Origin: a virus
Virus genome (UHGV): UHGV-0077918
Length of the DNA: 11,144 bases
Strand: one strand, 5' to 3'
Positions 1 through 11,144 of this stretch are shown here, in pieces. The notes under the pieces are model-generated. The model was not told the DNA's origin, ran no database searches, and worked only from the letters and a program-made list of their open reading frames with translations. The position numbers and the translations under genes were made by a program. Each line of letters starts with the position of its first letter. The first letter of the stretch is position 1.

Positions 1-20
1 TTTCTTCCATCCGTTTATAG

Positions 21-887
21 TCAGGAAGAAGGCGTTTCAGTGGTGCGGGGATACCGAAGCTTAACAGTAGCTGGGAGCCGGTCTATCAGGTCACATTCCC
101 GGATGGCTCCACGGATGTACTGAGCCAGGAGGATATCTGGCATGTGCGCACGCTGACGCTGGACGGACTGGTGGGGCTGAATCCCATCGCCTATGCCCGC
201 GAGGCAATATCGCTGGCGGCAGCGACCGAAGAGCACGGGGCCAGACTGTTCAGCAATGGCGCGGTGACGTCGGGTGTGTTGCGTACAGAGCAGACGCTGT
301 CAGATCAGGCTTACGAGCGCCTGAAGAAAGATTTTGAGGAGCGTCACACCGGGCTTGGCAATGCTCACCGCCCGATGATCCTTGAGATGGGGCTGGACTG
401 GAAGTCGATGGCGCTGAACGCCGAGGACAGCCAGTTCCTGGAAACCCGCAAGTTTCAGCTTGAAGAAATCTGTCGTCTGTTCCGGGTGCCGTTGCACATG
501 GTGCAGAACACCGATCGCGCCACCTTCAACAATATCGAAGAGCTGGGGCTGGGATTTATCAACTATTCACTGGTGCCGTATCTGACCCGCATCGAACAGC
601 GGATCAACACCGGACTGGTACGAAAAAGTAAGCAGGGCGTTTATTACGCCAAATTTAACGCCGGGGCGTTACTGCGCGGGGATATGAAGTCCCGTTTTGA
701 AGCCTACGCCACCGGGATCAACTGGGGAATTTACTCTCCCAATGACTGCCGCGACCTGGAAGATATGAATCCGCGTCCCGGTGGTGATGTCTATCTCACA
801 CCGATGAACATGACCACGAAACCCTCCGATGGCAGTAAAGCCGGTAAGCAGAAGGATAACGCCAATGCAGACGAAACAACGTCTTGA
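21..887 (+). CDS. Portal protein, HK97 family, C-terminal portion; 5' end disrupted or truncated
   Basis: Frame 3 is open from nt 21 (after an in-frame TAG at 18-20) to TGA at 885-887. The translation (..VYQVTFPDGSTDVLSQEDIWHVRTLTLDGLVGLNPIAYAREAISLA..FRVPLHMV..GDVYLTPMNM) matches my recollection of HK97-family portals. At most 289 aa are encoded, versus roughly 400 aa for this family. Confidence 0.75.
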   Translation, partial: SGRRRFSGAGIPKLNSSWEPVYQVTFPDGSTDVLSQEDIWHVRTLTLDGLVGLNPIAYAREAISLAAATEEHGARLFSNGAVTSGVLRTEQTLSDQAYERLKKDFEERHTGLGNAHRPMILEMGLDWKSMALNAEDSQFLETRKFQLEEICRLFRVPLHMVQNTDRATFNNIEELGLGFINYSLVPYLTRIEQRINTGLVRKSKQGVYYAKFNAGALLRGDMKSRFEAYATGINWGIYSPNDCRDLEDMNPRPGGDVYLTPMNMTTKPSDGSKAGKQKDNANADETTS

Positions 888-1515
888 TGTACCGCTGAGT
901 CTGAAATCTGTCAGTGACTCCGGTGAGTTTGAAGGGTATGGCTCCGTCTTTGGTGTAAAGGACAGTCACGATGATGTGGTGATGTCCGGGGCATTTGCTG
1001 CTTCCCTGCGGGCGTGGAGTGACAGAAAAGCGTTACCTGCGCTGCTCTGGCAGCACCGCATGGATGAACCCATCGGTGTTTACACCGAAATGAAGGAAGA
1101 CGATGTCGGGCTTTACGTCAGGGGACGGTTGCTTATTGATGATGATCCCCTCGCAAAACGCGCACATGCACACATGAAGGCCGGTTCGTTAACCGGCCTT
1201 TCTATTGGGTACGTCCTGAAAGACTGGGAATACGACCGGAGCAAAGAAGCCTTTCTGCTGAAAGAAATCGACCTCTGGGAAGTCAGCCTGGTGACGTTCC
1301 CGTCTAACGACGAGGCGCGGATCAGCGACGTCAAGAACGCACTGGCCCGCGGGGAAATCCCCGAACAGAAAAAAATCGAAAGAGTCCTGCGTGATGTCGG
1401 ACTCTCCCGTACCCAGGCCAAAGCATTCATGGCCGGGGGCTATGGCGCACTGTCCCTGCGCGACGCTGAGGATGTGGGCTCTGCACTGAATGCACTGAAA
1501 AATCTGAACTTCTAA
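865..1515 (+). CDS. Prohead maturation protease, HK97 gp4 family
   Basis: Motif EFEGYGSVFGVKDSHDDVVMSGAF near the N-terminus is typical of HK97-type prohead proteases. ATG 865 is preferred over ATG 829 because GAAGGA at 851-856 sits 8 nt upstream. The gene overlaps the portal 3' end and stops at TAA 1513-1515. Confidence 0.85.
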   Translation: MQTKQRLDVPLSLKSVSDSGEFEGYGSVFGVKDSHDDVVMSGAFAASLRAWSDRKALPALLWQHRMDEPIGVYTEMKEDDVGLYVRGRLLIDDDPLAKRAHAHMKAGSLTGLSIGYVLKDWEYDRSKEAFLLKEIDLWEVSLVTFPSNDEARISDVKNALARGEIPEQKKIERVLRDVGLSRTQAKAFMAGGYGALSLRDAEDVGSALNALKNLNF

Positions 1516-1529
1516 TCAGGAGAAATACG

Positions 1530-2735
1530 ATGGCGGTTGATATTAAAGATGTCGAACAGGTCGCGCAGGAGCTGCAGCAGAAGTTTGACGACTTCAAAGC
1601 AAAGAACGACAAGCGCGTGGATGCGATTGAGCAGGAAAAAGGCAAGCTTGCCGGGCAGGTGGAAACCCTGAACGGGAAACTCAGCGAGCTGGAAAATCTC
1701 AAAAGCGACCTTGAAAAAGAGCTGCTTGAGCTGAAACGTCCGGCAGGTGGTGCGCAAAATAAACTGGCCACCGAGCATAAAGAAGCGTTTGTGGGCTTCC
1801 TGCGTAAAGGCCGTGAAGACGGTCTGCGCGATCTGGAGCGTAAGGCATTGCAGGTGGGTACCGATGAAGACGGTGGCTACGCCGTGCCGGAAGAACTGGA
1901 TCGCAACATTCTTAACCTGCTGAAAGATGAAGTGGTGATGCGTCAGGAAGCCACGGTGATCACCGTTGGCGGTTCCGACTACAAAAAACTGGTGAATCTG
2001 GGCGGTACGGCTTCCGGATGGGTGGGGGAAACGGATACGCGATCCCAGACTGCCACCTCCAGACTGGAGCTGATTGAACCTCTCATGGGGGAAATCTACG
2101 GCAACCCGCAGGCTACCCAGAAAATGCTGGACGATGCCTTCTTCAACGTGGAGGCCTGGATCAACAGCGAGCTGGCAACCGAATTTGCCGAACAGGAAGA
2201 AATTGCCTTTACCTCCGGCGATGGCACCAAGAAGCCGAAAGGGTTCCTGGCGTATGAATCCACTGATGAAACCGACAAGGTCCGGGCGTTCGGCAAACTT
2301 CAGCATATTGTATCCGGCGAAGCGACCGCGGTGACCGCAGACGCCATTATCAAACTGATTTACACGCTGCGTAAGGCACACCGCACTGGCGCGAAGTTCA
2401 TGATGAACAACAACAGCCTGTTTGCCATCCGTCTGCTGAAAGACACCGAGGGTAACTATCTGTGGCGTCCGGGGCTGGAACTGGGGCAGCCGTCCTCTCT
2501 GGCGGGTTACGGTATCGCTGAAAACGAACAGATGCCGGATATCGCCGCTGATGCGAAAGCCATTGCATTTGGTAACTTCAAACGGGGTTACACCATCGTT
2601 GACCGTATCGGCACCCGCATTCTGCGTGACCCGTACACCAATAAACCGTTTGTCGGTTTTTATACCACCAAGCGCACCGGCGGGATGCTGGTCGATTCGC
2701 AGGCCATCAAACTGCTGAAGATTGCAGCGGCGTAA
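1530..2735 (+). CDS. Major capsid protein, HK97 fold, with N-terminal coiled-coil delta (scaffold) domain
   Basis: 401 aa; AGGAG at 1518-1522 sits 7 nt before the ATG. The first ~100 aa are charged and heptad-like (AQELQQKFDDFKAKNDKRVDAIEQEKGKLAGQVETLNGKLSELENLKSDLEKELLELK), followed by DEDGGYAVPEEL, the GGYxVP motif that follows the delta domain in HK97-like capsids. Confidence 0.9.
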   Translation: MAVDIKDVEQVAQELQQKFDDFKAKNDKRVDAIEQEKGKLAGQVETLNGKLSELENLKSDLEKELLELKRPAGGAQNKLATEHKEAFVGFLRKGREDGLRDLERKALQVGTDEDGGYAVPEELDRNILNLLKDEVVMRQEATVITVGGSDYKKLVNLGGTASGWVGETDTRSQTATSRLELIEPLMGEIYGNPQATQKMLDDAFFNVEAWINSELATEFAEQEEIAFTSGDGTKKPKGFLAYESTDETDKVRAFGKLQHIVSGEATAVTADAIIKLIYTLRKAHRTGAKFMMNNNSLFAIRLLKDTEGNYLWRPGLELGQPSSLAGYGIAENEQMPDIAADAKAIAFGNFKRGYTIVDRIGTRILRDPYTNKPFVGFYTTKRTGGMLVDSQAIKLLKIAAA

Positions 2736-2741
2736 TCACTC

Positions 2742-2769
2742 AGGGGCGCGGAACCGCGCCCCCTGTTCT
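2742..2769 (+). terminator. Putative intrinsic terminator or attenuator hairpin downstream of the capsid gene
   Basis: Perfect GC-rich inverted repeat AGGGGCGCGG / CCGCGCCCCT at 2742-2763, followed by GTTCTG. The U-tract is weak, so this may be a partial attenuator or an RNA-stabilising hairpin. Confidence 0.4.
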
Positions 2770-2784
2770 GACGGGTGAAGAATC

Positions 2785-2985
2785 ATGATCCTGAAACAAG
2801 ATCTGAAATGGTCACCGGACGGTATGCGTGTTGAGGTCATTCGGGCCGGTGAGTATGACGACGGGGCGCTTCCTGCCCGGGTGCAGGAGATTGCACTTCA
2901 GGCCGGGTTAGCAGAGCGCGGAATCAGTGCAAAAAGCAGTAAAGCGGCAAAAGAGAAAAAAGCCACGACCAGTAAAGAGGGCTGA
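2785..2985 (+). CDS. Hypothetical small protein (66 aa) between the capsid and connector genes
   Basis: ORF on the operon strand filling the capsid-to-gp6 gap; its stop (2983-2985) lies 2 nt before the next ATG. No family recognised; the RBS is weak. Confidence 0.45.
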   Translation: MILKQDLKWSPDGMRVEVIRAGEYDDGALPARVQEIALQAGLAERGISAKSSKAAKEKKATTSKEG

Positions 2986-2987
2986 GT

Positions 2988-3311
2988 ATGCTTCTGACAA
3001 TGGAAGAGATTAAAGCCCAACTCCGGCTGGATGAGGATTTCGATACTGATGACCGCCATCTGCAACTGCTGGCCTGTGCGGCACAAAAGCGGACGGAAAC
3101 GTATCTGAACCGGAAGCTCTATGCACCGGATGAAACCATTCCGGACAGCGATCCGGACGGGCTGCACCTGCCGGATGATATTCGTCTGGGGATGCTGATG
3201 CTTATCAGCCATTTTTACGAAAACCGCTCGTCGGTTACGGAAGTGGAGAAACTCGACATGCCGCAGAGTTTTGGCTGGCTTGTCGGCCCGTACAGGTACT
3301 TTCCGCAATGA
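2988..3311 (+). CDS. Head-tail connector protein, gp6-like (DNA-packaging / head-tail adaptor family)
   Basis: 107 aa; N-terminus MLLTMEEIKAQLRLDEDFDTDD..LQLL fits the gp6-like connector pattern. AGAGGG lies upstream of the ATG; position after the capsid is as expected. Confidence 0.7.
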   Translation: MLLTMEEIKAQLRLDEDFDTDDRHLQLLACAAQKRTETYLNRKLYAPDETIPDSDPDGLHLPDDIRLGMLMLISHFYENRSSVTEVEKLDMPQSFGWLVGPYRYFPQ

Positions 3312-3718
3312 AAATTCGTCAGGCGCAGACCAGCGCAACCTACATTCTGCCGGACCCCGGTGAACTGAATAAACGCGTCCTGATCCGCCAGCGGGTGGAT
3401 ATGCCCGCGGATAACTTTGGCATGGAGCCTCAATACCCGGTTACGTTCCGGACATGGGCGAAGGTTATCCAGACCAGTGCCACCACCTGGCAGGAAACCG
3501 CGCAGACCGGGGACGCCATCACCCATTACATCACCATTCGTTACCGCCGGGGGATCACCGCTGATTATGAGGTGGTCTGCGGTGACAGTGTGTACCGGGT
3601 GAAACGTCAGCGCGATCTGAACGGGGCGCGGCGCTTTCTGCTGCTGGAGTGTACGGAGCTGGGCGAATGTAGGCAGAGTCACGGAGGCAACAATGACGAC
3701 TTCCTTTTTGCACGTTGA
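3308..3718 (+). CDS. Head closure / head-tail joining protein, HK97 gp7-like
   Basis: 136 aa; ATGA overlap with the gp6-like stop indicates translational coupling. Size and position fit a head closure protein; the C-terminal ~25 aa overlap the next gene. Confidence 0.65.
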   Translation: MKIRQAQTSATYILPDPGELNKRVLIRQRVDMPADNFGMEPQYPVTFRTWAKVIQTSATTWQETAQTGDAITHYITIRYRRGITADYEVVCGDSVYRVKRQRDLNGARRFLLLECTELGECRQSHGGNNDDFLFAR

Positions 3719-4199
3719 TTTTCAGCAGCCCGCGGAGATGCGCTTTAACCGCGCCCGTGTCCGGCGGGCGTTTGTCACGATTGGTCAGCGTCATATGCGT
3801 GATGCCCGTCGGCTGGTGATGCGCCGTGCGCGGTCGGCACCGGGTGAAAACCCCGGTTATCAGACCGGACGCCTGGCTCGTTCGATTGGTTATATGGTGC
3901 CGAGAGCCAGTAAAAAGCGAGCCGGTTTTATGACACGCATTGCCCCTAACCAGCGCAACGGGAGGGGGAACCGGATGATCTCTGGTGACTTCTATCCGGC
4001 GTTTCTGTTTTTTGGTGTCCGGGGAGGAGCAAAACGTCGTCGTAGTCATCATCGTGGTGCATCCGGTGGCAGCGGCTGGCGACTGGCTCCACGTAATAAC
4101 TTCATGGTGGAAACGCTTGAAAAGAACCGCAGCTGGACACGCTATTTTCTGGCGCGGGAATTGCGTAAATCACTGAAGCCGGAGCGACGACACAGATGA
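3693..4199 (+). CDS. HK97 gp10-family neck / tail-component protein
   Basis: 168 aa, basic; GGAGG precedes the ATG. Contains a PGENPGYQTGRLARSI segment resembling the gp10-family signature; ATGA overlap with the next gene. Confidence 0.65.
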   Translation: MTTSFLHVDFQQPAEMRFNRARVRRAFVTIGQRHMRDARRLVMRRARSAPGENPGYQTGRLARSIGYMVPRASKKRAGFMTRIAPNQRNGRGNRMISGDFYPAFLFFGVRGGAKRRRSHHRGASGGSGWRLAPRNNFMVETLEKNRSWTRYFLARELRKSLKPERRHR

Positions 4200-4756
4200 A
4201 ACTGACGCCTGTTATTGCTGCACTGCGTGCCCGCTGTCCGTATTTTGAAAACCGGGTTGCAGGCGCGGCCCAGTTCAAAAATCTGCCGGAGGTCGGAAAG
4301 CTGAGACTCCCGGCGGCGTATGTGGTACCGGGTGATGACTCTCCGGGAGAAAACAAAAGCCAGACCGACTACTGGCAGGAGCTGAAAGAGGGCTTCTCCG
4401 TGGTTGTCATACTGAGTAACGGGCGTGATGAGCGCGGTCAGTTTGCCTCGTATGATGTGGTGGACGATGTCCGGCAGATGCTCTTTAAGGCTCTGCTGGG
4501 CTGGAACCCGGAGGCGTGCGGTAACCCGATTACCTATGACGGCGGCACGCTGCTGGATCTGAATCGTCATGAGCTGATTTATCAGTTCGATTTTTCGGTC
4601 ATCAGCGAGCTGACCGAAGACGATACCCGCCAGCAGGATGACCTGAACAGTCTGGATGAACTGCAAACGCTGGCGATTGATGTTGATTATCTCGATCCCG
4701 GTAACGGGCCTGACGGCGATATCGAACATCACACCGAAATAACCCTTCCTTCCTGA
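4196..4756 (+). CDS. Tail terminator / tail completion-like protein (gpU-like pattern) with acidic C-terminal extension
   Basis: 186 aa; residue pattern (M.L..V..AL..., LP..YVVPG, DYWQEL, FSVVVIL, WNP) resembles tail terminator proteins. Assignment is by pattern and position only. Confidence 0.5.
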   Translation: MKLTPVIAALRARCPYFENRVAGAAQFKNLPEVGKLRLPAAYVVPGDDSPGENKSQTDYWQELKEGFSVVVILSNGRDERGQFASYDVVDDVRQMLFKALLGWNPEACGNPITYDGGTLLDLNRHELIYQFDFSVISELTEDDTRQQDDLNSLDELQTLAIDVDYLDPGNGPDGDIEHHTEITLPS

Positions 4757-4764
4757 GGATCCTC

Positions 4765-4935
4765 ATGTTTGTCAAACCTGTTAAAGGGCGGTCAGTTCCT
4801 GACCCTGCCCGCGGCGACCTTTTGCCCGCCGAAGGGCGAAATGTTGACGAGAACAACTACTGGCTGCGCCGTGAAGCAGCGGGTGATATCCGGCGCGTGA
4901 ATAAAAAGGTGAACACCGATGACGATAAGCTTTAA
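4765..4935 (+). CDS. Small hypothetical protein (56 aa), not in the supplied ORF track
   Basis: My own translation: ATG 4765, MFVKPVKGRSVPDPARGDLLPAEGRNVDENNYWLRREAAGDIRRVNKKVNTDDDKL, TAA 4933-4935. GAGGA at 4755-4759 sits 5 nt upstream; the 3' end overlaps the next gene by 17 nt. Confidence 0.4.
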   Translation: MFVKPVKGRSVPDPARGDLLPAEGRNVDENNYWLRREAAGDIRRVNKKVNTDDDKL

Positions 4936-6202
4936 CACCATTCCGTCGAATACGCTGGTTCCGCTGTTTTATGCGGAAATGGATAACCAGGCGGCGAATA
5001 CCGAAGATCTGGGAAAAGTCACTTTCCGCCCGTCCATCACAGCTTATGTGGTGGGAGATGACTGCTTTGACCAGCGCGATCGCCTGATTGACGCGCTGAA
5101 TAAACCCGGTCCCGGCACGCTTGTCCATCCGACTTACGGTGAGCTGAAAGTCTGTGTTGACGGGGAAGTTCGGGTCAGCACATCGAAGAGTGAAGGACGT
5201 ATTGTCCGCTTTGACCTGAAGTTTGTCGAAGCAGGAGAACTCTCTTACCCCACATCAGGTGCGGCGACGGCGCAGGCGCTGATGTCATCCTGTTCTGCAC
5301 TGGATGACTGCATCAGTGACAGCTTCAGCGGTTTCAGTATCGATGGCGTGGCGGATTTTGTGCAGAACGACGTCGTCGGTAATGCCAGCACAATGCTTGG
5401 GTATGTTTCTGATGCGATGAAAGTGGTGGATTCTGCCGTATCGGATGCCGCCAGGCTGTTGCAGGGGGATATCTCGGTACTTCTGCCGCCGCCATCGTCA
5501 GGCAAAAATTTCGTTGAGCAGGTGCAGAAAATGTGGCGTACCGGGAAACGCCTTTATGGTAACGCCAGCGACCTGGTCACCATGATCAAAACGCTTTCCG
5601 GTGTCAGCCTCGGCAGCGATCTGCAACCGCGCGGCGTCTGGAAAACGGACAGTAAAACCACCGCCACGGCGACGCAGCAGCGTAACGTGGTTGCCAGCAC
5701 CCTTCGTACGACCGCAATCAGCGAAGCGGCGTATGCCGTCATCCGATTGCCTGCGCCAACAACTTCCGCGGTGATGCAGAATGCCGCAGTGGGGCAGTCA
5801 ACAACACCCGCGCAGAGCACCGGCTGGCCTTCCGTCACGCATCCGGCACTGAACAATGCACCGGCGGTGAAAAACACGGTTGACCTGCCAACGTGGGAAG
5901 AACTGACCGACATTCGCGACACACTGAATACGGCAATTGATAAGGAGTTGTCCCGTACAACCAGTGATGCGCTGTTTCTGGCGCTGCGCCGGGTGAAAGC
6001 AGATCTGAATGCGGATATCAACACGCGCCTTGAACAGTCTGCACGGATCATTCAGCGCACGCCGGATGAGGTTTTACCCGCGCTGGTGCTGGCGGCGACC
6101 TGGTTTGATAACGCGGCGCGTGACGCGGACATTATCCGGCGTAATGCCATTACGCATCCCGGCTTTGTGCCGGTGATCCCTCTGAAGGTGCCAGTGCAAT
6201 GA
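4919..6202 (+). CDS. DNA circularisation protein N-domain family (Mu gpN / gp43-like) tail protein; N-terminal ~28 aa possibly derived from a tail sheath gene
   Basis: 427 aa. EDLGK..VVGDDCFDQRDRLIDALNKPGPGTLVHPTYG matches my recollection of the DNA_circ_N domain, and the gene sits immediately upstream of the gpP/gp45/gp46/gp47/gp48 array as in Mu. The first residues (MTISFNTIPSNTLVPLFYAEMDN) look more like a Mu-type sheath N-terminus. Confidence 0.6.
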   Translation: MTISFNTIPSNTLVPLFYAEMDNQAANTEDLGKVTFRPSITAYVVGDDCFDQRDRLIDALNKPGPGTLVHPTYGELKVCVDGEVRVSTSKSEGRIVRFDLKFVEAGELSYPTSGAATAQALMSSCSALDDCISDSFSGFSIDGVADFVQNDVVGNASTMLGYVSDAMKVVDSAVSDAARLLQGDISVLLPPPSSGKNFVEQVQKMWRTGKRLYGNASDLVTMIKTLSGVSLGSDLQPRGVWKTDSKTTATATQQRNVVASTLRTTAISEAAYAVIRLPAPTTSAVMQNAAVGQSTTPAQSTGWPSVTHPALNNAPAVKNTVDLPTWEELTDIRDTLNTAIDKELSRTTSDALFLALRRVKADLNADINTRLEQSARIIQRTPDEVLPALVLAATWFDNAARDADIIRRNAITHPGFVPVIPLKVPVQ

Positions 6203-7273
6203 ACGATAATGTCACGCTACGGGTAAATGGCCGGGAGTGGAATGGCTGGACATCGGTGCGCATCGGTGCCGGTATTGAACGGCTGGGATTTCAGCGTGGA
6301 GATCACCCGCCAGTGGCCGGGAGATGAGGGTATCACCACGCTTCAGCCGCGCATTAAAAATGGTTCAAAAGTGGAAGTGCTGATTGGTGATGAGCTGGTG
6401 ATCACCGGCTGGGTGGAGGCGACCCCCGTTCGTTACGATGCCCGTTCGGTCAGCACCGGTATTGCCGGACGTAGTCTGACTGCTGACCTGATTGACTGTG
6501 CAGCCGAACCGACACAGTTTAACGGACGATCGCTGGTACAGATTGCGCAGGCGCTTGCTGCGCCTTTCGGCATTGAGGTGGTGAACAGCGATGCGCCGTC
6601 GGGTGTTATTCCTGATGTCCAGCCTGATCACGGTGAAACGGTGATTGAGGTAATCAACAAAATACTCGGTCAGCAGCAGGCACTGGCTTACGACGACCCG
6701 CACGGCAGGCTGGTGATTGGCGGTATTGGCTCAACGCGGGCACATACCGCGCTGGTACTTGGGGAAAACATCCTTTCCTGCGATACGGAGAAGAGTATCC
6801 GGGAGCGGTTTTCTGTTTACCAGGTGGCGGGGCAGCGTGCCGGAAACGACGATGATTTCGGTGAGGCCACCACCACCGCGCTGCGGGCCCGCACAGAGGA
6901 CGCATTTATTGCCCGTTACCGTCCGATGTATATCAGGCAGACAGGGCAGGCCACGGGGGCAGGCTGTATTGCGCGTGCTGACTTTGAAGCCCGACAACGG
7001 GCGGCGCGGACGGATGAAACCACCTATGTGGTGCAGGGCTGGCGACAGGGTAACGGTACGCTGTGGCAGCCCAACCAGCGGGTGATTGTCTTCGATCCGG
7101 TCTGTGGTTTCGACAATACCGAACTGCTTGTTTCGGAAGTCACGTTTACTCAGGACCAGAACGGCACCCTGACGGAAATCCGTGTCGGCCCACCTGATGC
7201 TTATCTGCCTGAACCAGAAGCCCCCGGCGCGCGGAAAAAGAAAAAAGCCAGAGTACAGGAGGACCCGTTCTGA
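6199..7273 (+). CDS. Baseplate protein, Mu gpP (gp44)-like; reading frame apparently interrupted near nt 6285-6290
   Basis: ATG 6199 overlaps the upstream stop (ATGA) and frame 1 encodes MNDNVTLRVNGREWNGWTSVRIGAGIERL before a TGA at 6325-6327. The rest of the protein (DFSVEITRQWPGDEG.. to 7273) is in frame 2, which is closed upstream of 6227. Confidence 0.6.
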
Positions 7274-7821
7274 TGAGGACGATTGAAGCCATGCAGCGAC
7301 AACTCCTCGGCCTGATTGGGCGGGCCGTGGTGAAAAGCATCAGTGCCGCCACGAAATGTCAGACCGTGGATGTGTCCCTGATTGCCGGTGAACCCAAAGC
7401 CGGGGTTGAACATCTTGAACCCTACGGTTTTACCGCAAGGGCAAACAGCGGTGCGGAAGCGGTGGTGTTGTTTCCGGATGGCGACCGTTCTCATGCGGTG
7501 GTTGTTACGGTGTCGGACCGGCGCTACCGCCTGAAAGGGCTGCAGACGGGTGAGGTGGCTGTCTATGACGATCAGGGGCAGTCCGTGACGCTGACCCGGG
7601 AGGGGATCGTGGTGGACGGTGCAGGTAAAACGATCACGTTTCGCAATGCACCTGAAGCACGTTTTGAAATGGACCTGGAAGTGACCGGACAGGTGAAAGA
7701 CCTGTGCGACTCCGGCGGCACCACCATGTCAGCGATGCGGCTTGCCTATAACGGGCATCGTCACAGAGAGAACGGTCAGGGCAGTAACACCGACAAACCG
7801 GATAAAGCGATGGAGGCATGA
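7273..7821 (+). CDS. Baseplate spike / assembly protein, gpV-like (Mu gp45-like)
   Basis: 182 aa; TGATG overlap with the gpP-like stop. C-terminal CDSGGTT..HRH motif resembles the P2 gpV / Mu gp45 family. Confidence 0.7.
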   Translation: MRTIEAMQRQLLGLIGRAVVKSISAATKCQTVDVSLIAGEPKAGVEHLEPYGFTARANSGAEAVVLFPDGDRSHAVVVTVSDRRYRLKGLQTGEVAVYDDQGQSVTLTREGIVVDGAGKTITFRNAPEARFEMDLEVTGQVKDLCDSGGTTMSAMRLAYNGHRHRENGQGSNTDKPDKAMEA

Positions 7822-8246
7822 TGGAACTGTGGCTGACGGTGAACGGTAAACGCACCTGCGCCAGCGCACCGCTGGATCCGCTGACCCGCGCCGTGGTGAT
7901 TTCCCTGTTTACCTGGCGGCGGGCGGAGCCTGATGACAACGCCGACGTCCCGATGGGATGGTGGGGGGATACCTGGCCTGCGGTACAGAATGACCGTTAC
8001 GGCTCCCGACTGTGGCTGCTTCAGCGCAGCAAACTGACCAATCAGCTGGTGCAGACGGTAAGGGGGTATATCCGCGAATGCCTGCAATGGATGATTGATG
8101 ATGGCGTGGTGTCCCGTATTGATCTGGATATCCGCCGCACCGGGATTAATGAACTGGGTAACAGTATCACTCTCTGGCGTCGTGACGGACCGGTAATGAT
8201 TTCTTTTGATGATCTGTGGAGTGCGATAACGCATGGCGGACAGTGA
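7818..8246 (+). CDS. Baseplate wedge protein, Mu gp46-like (GPW/gp25 family)
   Basis: 142 aa; ATGA overlap with the upstream gene. Size and position between the gpV-like and J-like genes match the Mu gp46 position. Confidence 0.65.
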   Translation: MMELWLTVNGKRTCASAPLDPLTRAVVISLFTWRRAEPDDNADVPMGWWGDTWPAVQNDRYGSRLWLLQRSKLTNQLVQTVRGYIRECLQWMIDDGVVSRIDLDIRRTGINELGNSITLWRRDGPVMISFDDLWSAITHGGQ

Positions 8247-9291
8247 ATTTCAGCGCCCGACGCTGGCAGAAAATATCAGTATGCTCCGTAACGATTTATT
8301 CGCCAGGCTGGACGTCAGCGACACGCTCCGGCGCATGGATGAAGACGTGCGGGCAAAGGTGTATGCGGCGGCGCTGCATACGGTTTACGGTTACATCGAT
8401 TATCTGGCAATGAACATGCTGCCTGACCTGTGCGATGAGTCCTGGCTGGCGCGACATGCTGCGATGAAACGGTGTCCGCGCAAGGGGGCCACGGCTGCCA
8501 GCGGGTATATGCGCTGGGAAGGTGTCAGCGATGGCCTGAAGGTGACTGCCGGGAGCGTGATTCAGCGCGATGACCTGGTTCAGTACACGGCAACTGCCGA
8601 TGCAACCAGCTCCGGTGGTGTCCTGCGCGTGCCGATCGCCTGCTCAAGTGCAGGCGCGGTCGGTAACGCTGACGACGGTACGGCATTAATCCTGGTCACG
8701 CCGGTGAATGGTCTGCCGTCTTCCGGTGTTGCAGATACTCTGACTGGCGGATTCGATACTGAAGATCTGGAAACGTGGCGCGCCCGCGTCATTGAGCGGT
8801 ATTACTGGACGCCGCAGGGCGGGGCTGACGGGGACTATGTCGTCTGGGCTAAAGAAGTGCCCGGCATTACCCGCGCATGGACATACCGTCACTGGATGGG
8901 AACGGGAACTGTCGGTGTGATGATTGCCAGCAGTGACCTGATTAATCCCATTCCGGAAGAATCAACGGAAACGGCGGCAAGACAACATATCGGGCCACTG
9001 GCCCCGGTGGCAGGCTCTGATTTGTATGTATTCAGGCCGGTGGCACATACGGTGGATTTTCATATCCGCGTGACGCCGGACACACCAGAAATACGGGCTG
9101 CCATCACCGCGGAGTTGCGTTCGTTCCTGCTGCGTGATGGTTATCCGCAGGGAGAACTGAAGGTATCGCGTATCAGTGAGGCGATTTCCGGTGCGAACGG
9201 GGAATACAGCCATCAGTTGCTTGCACCGGCAGACAATATCTCCATTGCAAAAAATGAACTGGCGGTACTGGGGACGATTTCATGGACGTGA
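8233..9291 (+). CDS. Baseplate J-like protein (Mu gp47-like)
   Basis: 352 aa; overlaps the upstream gene by 14 nt. Size and position are typical of baseplate J family proteins. Confidence 0.75.
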
Positions 9292-9866
9292 CAAACGATG
9301 ATTACATCCGTCTGTTGTCGGCACTGTTGCCCCCCGGTCCGGCGTGGTCAGCCAGCGATCCGGCGATTGCCGGTGCGGCACCGTCATTAACCCGCGTTCA
9401 TCAGCGTGCGGATGCCCTGATGCGGGAGCTGGATCCGCGCACCACCACTGAACTGATAAACCGCTGGGAGCGTCTGTGCGGTCTGCCGGATGAATGTATT
9501 CCCGCAGGGACACAGACCCTTCGCCAGCGTCAGCAACGGCTGGATGCGAAGGTTAACCTGGCGGGCGGCATCAACGAGAATTTTTATCTTGCACAGCTTG
9601 CTGCCCTGGGCAGACCAGACGCTACCATCACGCGATACGACAAAAGCACGTTCACCTGCTCATCGGCCTGTACTGACGCGGTGAATGCGCCGGAATGGCG
9701 GTATTACTGGCAGGTCAACATGCCAGCCGCCACAAACACCACCTGGATGACATGTGGCGATCCCTGTGATTCCGCGCTGCGTATCTGGGGCGACACCGTT
9801 GTCGAATGTGTGCTTAACAAACTCTGCCCGTCGCATACCTACGTAATTTTTAAATATCCGGAGTAA
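9282..9866 (+). CDS. Tail protein, Mu gp48-like (YmfQ-like, DUF2313-type)
   Basis: 194 aa; overlaps the J-like gene's 3' end and lies immediately upstream of the tail fibre gene, as for gp48/YmfQ-type proteins. Confidence 0.6.
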
Positions 9867-9869
9867 TCC

Positions 9870-10571
9870 ATGCATCGTATAGACACGAAAACCGCGCAGA
9901 AGGATAAGTTCGGCGCGGGTAAGAACGGTTTTACCCGTGGTAACCCCCAGACTGGCACACCTGCCACCGATCTGGATGATGACTACTTTGATATGTTGCA
10001 GGAAGAACTCTGCAGCGTGGTGGAGGCATCCGGTGCCAGCCTGGAGAAGGGGCGAAACGACCAGTTGCTTACCGCGCTTCGTGCTCTGCTGTTAAGCCGC
10101 AAGAATCCGTTTGGTGATATCAAATCGGATGGCACGGTGAAAACGGCTCTCGAAAACCTTGGTTTGGGAGAAGGCTCAGCATTACCCGTTGGTGTGCCTG
10201 TTCCGTGGCCTTCAGCCACTCCGCCAACAGGCTGGCTGAAATGCAATGGTGCGGCTTTTTCTGCTGAAGAATACCCGGAACTGGCAAAGGCTTATCCAAC
10301 AAATAAATTACCTGATTTACGCGGTGAGTTTATTCGTGGATGGGATGATGGGCGCGGGGTGGATGCAGGGCGCGCGCTTCTCTCGGCGCAGTCCGATTTA
10401 TTTAAAGCGCACCACCACAATTTTTCGTTTTTTAGAGCCTGGGCTGTAGATGGAGGGACTGGTGCTGTATACGATTTTAACGGCAGTGCAGGCAGAGATA
10501 CCGACGACACCGGCGGAAATGAAACGCGCCCCCGCAACATTGCATTTAACTACATTGTGAGGGCTGCATAA
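9870..10571 (+). CDS. Tail fibre protein: conserved N-terminal region plus tail-collar-type variable C-terminus
   Basis: 233 aa. The N-terminus [46 protein letters not shown] is typical of enterobacterial prophage tail fibres. The C-terminal part (..[18 protein letters not shown]..) resembles the phage tail collar domain. The gene contains the invertase crossover site at 10147-10172. Confidence 0.75.
10147..10172. other. Hin/Gin/Pin/Cin-family serine invertase crossover site (hix/gix-like) inside the tail fibre gene
   Basis: CTCTCGAAAACC-TT-GGTTTGGGAGAA: two 12-bp half-sites in inverted orientation around a 2-bp core. By my count 19 of 26 positions match hixL (TTCTTGAAAACCAAGGTTTTTGATAA). 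It sits at the constant/variable junction of the fibre ORF (encoding ..ALENLGLGE..). Confidence 0.6.
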
Positions 10572-11144
10572 TGACACAGGCAAAATTAAACAGTGAATTT
10601 ATTGCCACGGAACCCGGCTTCATTACCGTTTATAACTACAACGGAGAAACGCGGGAATATATATCCACATCAACTGAGTATCTTGCGGTGGGTGTCGGTA
10701 TTCCGGCGCATTCCTGTTTAGATGCTCCTGGCTCAAACAAAGCTGGTTATGCAATCTGCCGAACGGTAGATTTAAACTCATGGGAATATGTGTCAGACCA
10801 TCGCGGTGAAACGGTCTATAGCACCGAAACAGGAGAATCGAAAGAAATCACATCTCTGGGTGATTACCCCGAAAATACAACCACTATCGCCCCGTTAACA
10901 CCATACGATAAATGGGATGGTGAGAAATGGGTGACGGATACTGAGGCACAATGTAGCGCCGCAGTGGACGCGGCAGAAATCCAACGCCAGTCACTGATTG
11001 ATGCAGCAATGAATTCCGTCGGTCTGATTCAGCTGAAATTACAGGCCGGACGTAAACTTACGCAGGAAGAAACAACCAGACTTAACGCTGTGCTGGATTA
11101 CATTGACGCGGTGACGGCAACAGATACCAGCACCGCGCCGGATG
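10571..11144 (+). CDS. Tail fibre assembly protein (Tfa family), 3' end beyond the window
   Basis: Not in the ORF track because there is no stop in the window. My translation starts at the ATG overlapping the fibre stop (TAATG): [23 protein letters not shown]...NAVLDYIDAVTATDTSTAPD. The ..VDTSTAPD motif and the DHRGETVY / PEN / KWDGEKWV pattern match lambda-type Tfa proteins as I recall them. Confidence 0.75.
   Translation, partial: MTQAKLNSEFIATEPGFITVYNYNGETREYISTSTEYLAVGVGIPAHSCLDAPGSNKAGYAICRTVDLNSWEYVSDHRGETVYSTETGESKEITSLGDYPENTTTIAPLTPYDKWDGEKWVTDTEAQCSAAVDAAEIQRQSLIDAAMNSVGLIQLKLQAGRKLTQEETTRLNAVLDYIDAVTATDTSTAPD

Follow-up and report, generated by a model that had tools for sequence, protein, structure and literature searches.

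A true pix-type crossover site, probably solitary, in the tail-fibre gene of a decayed e14/SfV-like element

The 26-bp dyad embedded in the tail-fibre gene of this element is confirmed by sequence comparison as a true pix-type crossover site for serine invertases of the Pin/Gin/Cin/Hin family, and the copy is best read, with a probability of roughly 0.76, as an inherited and solitary relic. The window, a term used here for the whole stretch of DNA that was analysed, is an entire metagenome contig of 11,144 bp (ENA ERZ773149 NODE_2963; coverage 3.26), the one contig on which its fibre protein occurs; it ends 972 nt past the site, within a tail-fibre assembly gene (tfa), and the content further downstream is read from its relatives. 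In Din-family segments, the two inverted sites typically lie 1.8–4 kb apart, and a serine invertase gene of about 180–195 aa adjoins them. The invertases act as dimers on the two sites together with a Fis-bound enhancer, cleaving the central 2 bp, rotating by 180 degrees and religating; with a single site, there is no inversion. A site that is solitary would therefore allow no switching of the fibre.

The crossover site (CTCTCGAAAACCTTGGTTTGGGAGAA; window 10147–10172, plus strand) is composed of two 12-bp imperfect inverted half-sites and a 2-bp core, with 9 of the 12 half-site positions symmetric about the central TT at 10159–10160. Its recognition is based on identity to the sites of K-12 e14 and SfV orf21 and on the consensus of the Mu gix and P1 cix sites. 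Relative to the family consensus TTCTCNNAAACCNNGGTTTNNGAGAA, in which 20 positions are specified, it carries one mismatch, while the annotated Mu G-segment boundaries and P1 cixL/cixR carry two to three of 20. The left P-segment site of K-12 e14, located inside stfP/ycfK (L004 4779–4804), is the same 26-mer at all 26 positions, and its partner, TTCTCCCAAACCAACGTTTATGAAAA, lies 55 bp ahead of pinE. Membership of the hix/gix/cix/pix family, as put forward in an earlier sequence-only reading of this DNA, is thus borne out by both comparisons. The 26-mer includes TTGGTTTGGGAGAAGG, the 16-bp inverted repeat that bounds the 1797-bp e14 P segment (PMC12529663). This segment is inverted by PinE, PinQ and PinR, also in trans (PMC12529663), and its phase variation in MG1655 cultures has been documented by sequencing and PCR (PMC4272514). 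When up to three mismatches are allowed, CTCTCGAAAACCTTGGTTTGGGAGAA occurs once in the window against 0.00 expected copies (200 shuffles), and a consensus scan of 1.25 Mb of related loci returned 49 sites against one in shuffled sequence. The central TT dinucleotide is the expected point of strand exchange and sets the polarity of the site, as indicated by the P1 annotation, in which the crossover point is the centre of cixL and of cixR, and by a natural inversion described below; the partner sites of relatives show an AA core on the same strand. Scans by consensus and by mismatch revealed no second crossover site anywhere in the window, and neither the list of open reading frames (ORFs) nor tblastn with PinE revealed a Pin-like ORF in it.

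The site lies in frame within a tail-fibre gene for a 233-aa protein (9870–10571, plus strand), delimited from the ORF list, PF07484 and alignment with K-12 stfP and stfE, and it encodes the peptide ALENLGLGE (residues 93–101). Directly upstream, as in e14 and SfV, is a baseplate gene of the Mu gp48/YmfQ family (9282–9866, plus strand; PF10076 and annotations). The N-terminal part of the fibre (9870–10146) is constant, being common to K-12 stfP/ycfK, SfV orf21 and e14-like prophages, and homology on this side with K-12 e14, SfV, L013–L017 and L046/L047 stops at 10173–10174. The remainder (10173–10571) is a variable cassette of the StfE type that also occurs in HK97, P2-like and P1-like elements. 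Homology on the cassette side with HK97, HK106, P2-like and Klebsiella phages starts at 10148–10159, with phage matches beginning at query positions 279–290. PF07484 Collar, the sole Pfam domain of the ORF, covers residues 108–155, just past the site. A breakpoint histogram of all loci retrieved has 22 alignment ends in the 10150–10174 bin and 38 starts at 10125–10174. The placement of the site at the junction between a conserved N-terminus and a variable C-terminus, which had been proposed from the sequence alone, therefore holds, given that homology switches at 10148–10174; together with a tfa gene inside the segment, this is the arrangement typical of the Din family. Alignment with K-12 indicates that the fibre joins an e14 (stfP-like) constant N-terminus at the site to an StfE-type C-terminus and is the flipped isomer ('StfP2') relative to the K-12 arrangement.

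Within the cassette, a second cluster of homology breakpoints delimits a hypervariable tip (10365–10520, plus strand), with 110 alignment ends at 10350–10399 and 87 starts at 10500–10549. In most relatives, alignment stops at about 10365 and resumes at about 10520, the intervening stretch being unrelated, which constitutes a second mosaic boundary past the site. The best match to the cassette among complete E. coli genomes is 93%, and the same tip type is present there in lambdoid, gtr-type, P1-like, P2-like and Mu-like contexts. Many tail-fibre proteins of the same family (P0002, P0003, P0007, P0017, P0019 and others) are named 'integrase' in NCBI records, evidently a propagated misannotation.

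The relatives, whose samples are not independent of one another, present the module in three states: among 64 informative loci with the exact 26-mer, pin is full-length in 31, disrupted in 20 and missing in 13. The intact state is exemplified by L160 (E. coli UPEC_U013), an e14-like prophage that is complete, has its pinE module intact with sites 1861 bp apart, and matches window 52–5001 in its head genes at 99.2% identity. Its P segment is oriented opposite to that of the window. Complete modules of this kind are also present in K-12, L017 and many IMG/VR prophages, and the window segment is likewise inverted relative to L017 and K-12. Modules with a truncated or frameshifted invertase occur at the e14 position in, for example, L019, L077 and L078, and a single site without an invertase is found in phage SfV, in HK97 and in several E. 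coli prophages. A second, inverted site is present in most family members outside the allele-matched set described below. An alternative fibre C-terminus with its tfa on the opposite strand is carried by L160, L017, L077, L078 and L167 and does not appear in the ORF list of the window. Identity over the constant region was considered as a discriminator between these states and rejected, since pin-bearing loci (97.7–98.8%) and pin-less loci (about 97–97.5%) are equally close to the window. One further match, the 5.8-kb L015 (JAEWTL010000032.1, from a metagenome-assembled genome labelled 'Bacillota bacterium'), is 97.9% identical to window 4998–10173 and ends just past the site; it is probably a binning contaminant consisting of E. 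coli prophage DNA.

A clean natural example of the switch is provided by L167 and L168, in which the same Mu-like prophage with identical recombinase proteins is inserted at tonB-yciI in two E. coli strains. The flanks of the two loci are 99.97% identical and collinear. Between them, a fibre-tip segment of 1874 bp (L167 4487–6360) is inverted in L168 at 99.15% identity, with breakpoints at the site core. The inverted segment contains a cassette of the window's tip type, 88.5% identical to that of the window.

For the window's own lineage, the most telling loci are those that match its allele. This set was assembled from complete genomes and from contigs of fibre proteins 94–100% identical, retrieved from a large protein collection, and comprises 11 informative loci that match the window in constant region as well as in 233-aa fibre allele. 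In all 11 the site occurs once, the 4.8–10.4 kb downstream contains no Pin ORF at E ≤ 1e-3, and the alternative cassette is likewise absent. What lies past tfa in these loci are IS elements, genes for O-antigen modification and an integrase, a layout like that of SfV. The best relative, L170 (E. coli GCA_015286505.1), is 99.2% identical over 10173–11144, including 800 consecutive nucleotides free of mismatches; past its tfa come two IS5-like elements on either side of an acyltransferase gene, and then host genes. The window's tip allele was found in none of the examined pin-bearing e14-family loci, whose alignments break at 10365–10520. The intact module that the sequence-only reading had predicted beyond the 3' end is therefore not supported for this lineage by the comparative evidence; the prediction was reasonable beforehand, considering that at least a remnant of pin survives in 51 of the 64 informative loci that have the exact 26-mer. 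A restriction of the tip allele to non-invertible contexts was considered and rejected as well, because cassettes of the same tip type at 88–89% identity (L164, L166, L167 and L168) are located in modules with full-length recombinase genes, these being intact invertible modules of P2-like and Mu-like prophages. IS5-family elements (IS5-like or ISKpn26-like) are situated about 25 nt to 1 kb past the tfa stop in many pin-less relatives (L170 2898–3900, L075 6061–7029, L079, L165, L172, L175 and L177), where they adjoin gtr or acyltransferase cargo.

The tfa gene, encoding the tail-fibre assembly chaperone (10571–11144, plus strand; PF02413 Caudo_TAP), is cut by the contig end after 191 of about 200 codons, and in relatives it runs 29 nt further to its stop. 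The last 55–64 nt of the contig (11090–11144) are identical to the 3' end of tfa in K-12 tfaE and in both pin-bearing and pin-less relatives, and the arrangements diverge about 46 nt beyond the contig end. The break at 11144 probably marks entry into a repeat common to several prophages in the sample, judging from this shared stretch. The contig end was examined as a clue to the downstream arrangement and discarded: because the 3' stretch of tfa is identical across arrangements, the break is uninformative on what follows. At their right ends, six IMG/VR contigs (L144, L145, L154, L156, L157 and L158) terminate 62–117 nt past the crossover site, which suggests that assemblers commonly break at the boundary of the fibre cassette.

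The constancy of the site differs between loci with and without pin. When site changes were counted in loci anchored on 100 nt of upstream coding sequence, so that the choice of loci was independent of the site itself, the 26-mer was unchanged in 31 of 35 loci with full pin, in 21 of 22 with partial pin and in 16 of 24 with none; changes thus affected 8 of 24 pin-less loci versus 5 of the 57 that have pin in whole or in part. Changes in the pin-less loci strike the site core (AAACC to AAATC; TTGG to TTGA or TTAG). Core-substituted sites are found in L001 (10948–10973), in L172–L174 and L177 (7278–7303) and in L080 (6278–6303), and one of them alters the encoded peptide from G to D. These substitutions are suggestive of relaxed constraint on the DNA site where pin is missing, in a set of loci that are not independent. 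The window's own site has none of the core mutations seen in some pin-less relatives.

The element as a whole is extensively decayed. Alignment to L002, L160, L017 and other loci identifies the junction of a 4.2-kb deletion, with ATAC microhomology, at 4998–5001. The deletion takes out the genes for tube, tail-assembly chaperone and tape measure, together with the greater part of the sheath gene and the beginning of that for DNA circularisation. This creates an in-frame fusion ORF (4919–6202, plus strand) in which 28 sheath residues are followed by the DNA-circularisation protein from about residue 43. The junction was found in 0 of 5426 complete E. coli genomes. Despite a coverage of about 3x, the deletion is probably real, because an overlap of 4 bp is unlikely to be bridged by a de Bruijn assembler. 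The suspicion that the prophage is degraded outside the fibre region, raised by the sequence-only reading, is accordingly justified by the loss of sheath, tube and tape-measure genes. The same block of genes is missing, by way of another junction, from the related pin-less prophage L177 (E. coli GCA_000785765.1; 1742–2123); in L002 coordinates, 1559–5435 is removed in L177 and 1594–5793 in the window. Elements that shed the tail core yet keep their head and baseplate genes have thus arisen repeatedly, as these two distinct junctions indicate. At the other end of the contig, window 1–52 is foreign to the portal gene that follows and matches an early region like SfV orf30/yfdR at 94%. The junction at about position 52 is in no complete E. 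coli genome and may reflect either an artefact of assembly at this tip of the contig or a second large deletion, one extending from the early region into the middle of the portal gene. From its gene content, the element is predicted to be unable to build a contractile tail, and any switching of fibre or host range would consequently lack a virion to act on.

Taken together, these observations favour a site inherited with a tail-fibre gene of the e14/SfV family. In complete modules, invertase dimers would bind such a site and its inverted partner about 1.8–1.9 kb downstream, cut both centrally and rotate the strands, and by the resulting inversion one pair of fibre C-terminus and Tfa chaperone would give way to another. 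The window represents the isomer that joins the e14 constant N-terminus to an StfE-type collar tip and its tfa. A solitary site may persist in such a gene because it codes for the ALENLGLGE linker and marks the point where phages exchange fibre-tip cassettes.

An intact e14-type invertible module could instead begin just past the contig end, with the window as one of two isomers, and would then include a convergent second tfa, a gp53-like alternative tip, an inverted site about 1.8–1.9 kb away and a full-length pin with its enhancer. This is unlikely. Although 31 of the 64 informative loci with the exact 26-mer have the intact arrangement, as does L160 with its closely matching head region (99.2%), none of the 11 loci that share both constant region and fibre allele does so. 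The window fibre is the flipped isomer of K-12, L017 and L160, its site is unmutated, and a cassette of the same tip type has been inverted between L167 and L168; nevertheless, the sole near-identical cassette (L170, 99.2%) is followed past tfa by an IS element and an acyltransferase gene, and the examined pin-bearing e14-family loci, with their alignments broken at 10365–10520, are without the window's tip allele. Quite unlikely, too, is a decayed module that retains the partner site and alternative cassette and has a truncated or frameshifted invertase, given that the allele-matched relatives are devoid of any partner site and that the evidence against an intact module applies likewise. Such modules do exist, with a disrupted pin at 20 of the 64 exact-site loci (L019, L077 and L078 being examples at the e14 position), and their segment would be frozen unless a Pin homologue from another prophage acted in trans, a capacity demonstrated on the e14 P segment for PinQ, PinR and PinE (PMC12529663).

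That the dyad is no recombination site, having arisen by chance or being conserved solely as the code for the ALENLGLGE linker, is extremely improbable. Its coding location and the conservation of the peptide even in the invertase-less phages SfV and HK97 would fit this explanation; however, the 26-mer is identical at all 26 positions to a site experimentally shown to recombine, the chance expectation is 0.00, and the natural inversion breaks exactly at the core of a homologous site. Conservation at third-codon and otherwise unspecified positions also argues against it, being 0.94 inside the site and 0.69–0.75 in the flanks, values anchored on detected sites and thus subject to some ascertainment bias. 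A different role for the relic has been considered, in which the tail-less remnant keeps an intact fibre–tfa cassette and an unmutated site through use by the host while Pin-type invertases of other prophages act on it in trans. This is very unlikely. If such trans action were true, it might flip a downstream segment unseen here or swap cassettes with the sites of other prophages, and would switch fibre-derived proteins that keep other phages from adsorbing, an effect reported in e14 for PinQ and StfE2. The reading preferred here thus remains that of an inherited, solitary site.

The principal implication is that a perfect crossover site in a fibre gene is, alone, no predictor of a working switch: among the sampled loci, a full-length invertase accompanies only about half of these identical sites, and in a whole SfV-like sub-lineage with gtr or oac genes the site stands by itself. 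Such sites also mark junctions where fibre-tip cassettes pass between unrelated phages. These points are relevant to the prediction of host range or phase variation from genomes and metagenomes and otherwise concern mainly correct annotation.

Both the site and the system to which it belongs are already known. Characterisation of the e14 P segment and of the Din invertases goes back to the 1980s, and the sequence-only reading was right to assign the site to a known class, the window copy being identical in sequence. The e14 P segment (stfP/ycfK–tfaP–tfaE–stfE–pinE, with pix sites) has the same left site at all 26 positions, a variable part of the same StfE type, in the opposite isomer, and a shared constant fibre N-terminus with upstream ymfQ/gp48 (96.7% nucleotide identity over 8504–10174). 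It differs in that the window cassette is 86–93% identical to K-12 stfE/tfaE and has another hypervariable tip, and in that the second site, the alternative cassette and pinE are not in the window and are absent from allele-matched relatives.

SfV shares the baseplate and fibre module (97.3% over 7699–10173) and has the identical 26-mer in orf21, where the site is followed by tfa, gtrV/B/A and int, with no invertase. The same order of tfa, then cargo and integrase, without an invertase, is typical of the Shigella serotype-converting phages SfV and SfI and of E. coli prophages that carry gtr or oac (PMC3636060), and the closest relatives of the window cassette have this SfV/SfI-type layout. Unlike the window, which has a collar tip and is without sheath, tube and tape-measure genes, SfV has a gp53-like tip and is a complete infectious phage.

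The Mu G segment (Gin/gix) and the P1 C segment (Cin/cix) resemble the window in that a 26-bp site lies where the constant part of the fibre meets the variable part and tfa-type chaperones lie inside the segment. They involve other fibre genes, their sites differ from that of the window at six (gixL) to seven (cixL) of 26 positions, and they are complete modules in which partner site and invertase are annotated, as is, in P1, an enhancer inside the 5' part of cin. HK97 stf/tfa and P2-like cassettes share a collar-type cassette (85–89% nucleotide identity) that begins exactly at the site, whereas the N-terminal part of the fibre and the virion type are unrelated. In HK97 stf, a site matching at 23 of 26 positions is followed by tfa, attP and int, with no invertase, which provides a precedent for a solitary relic site.
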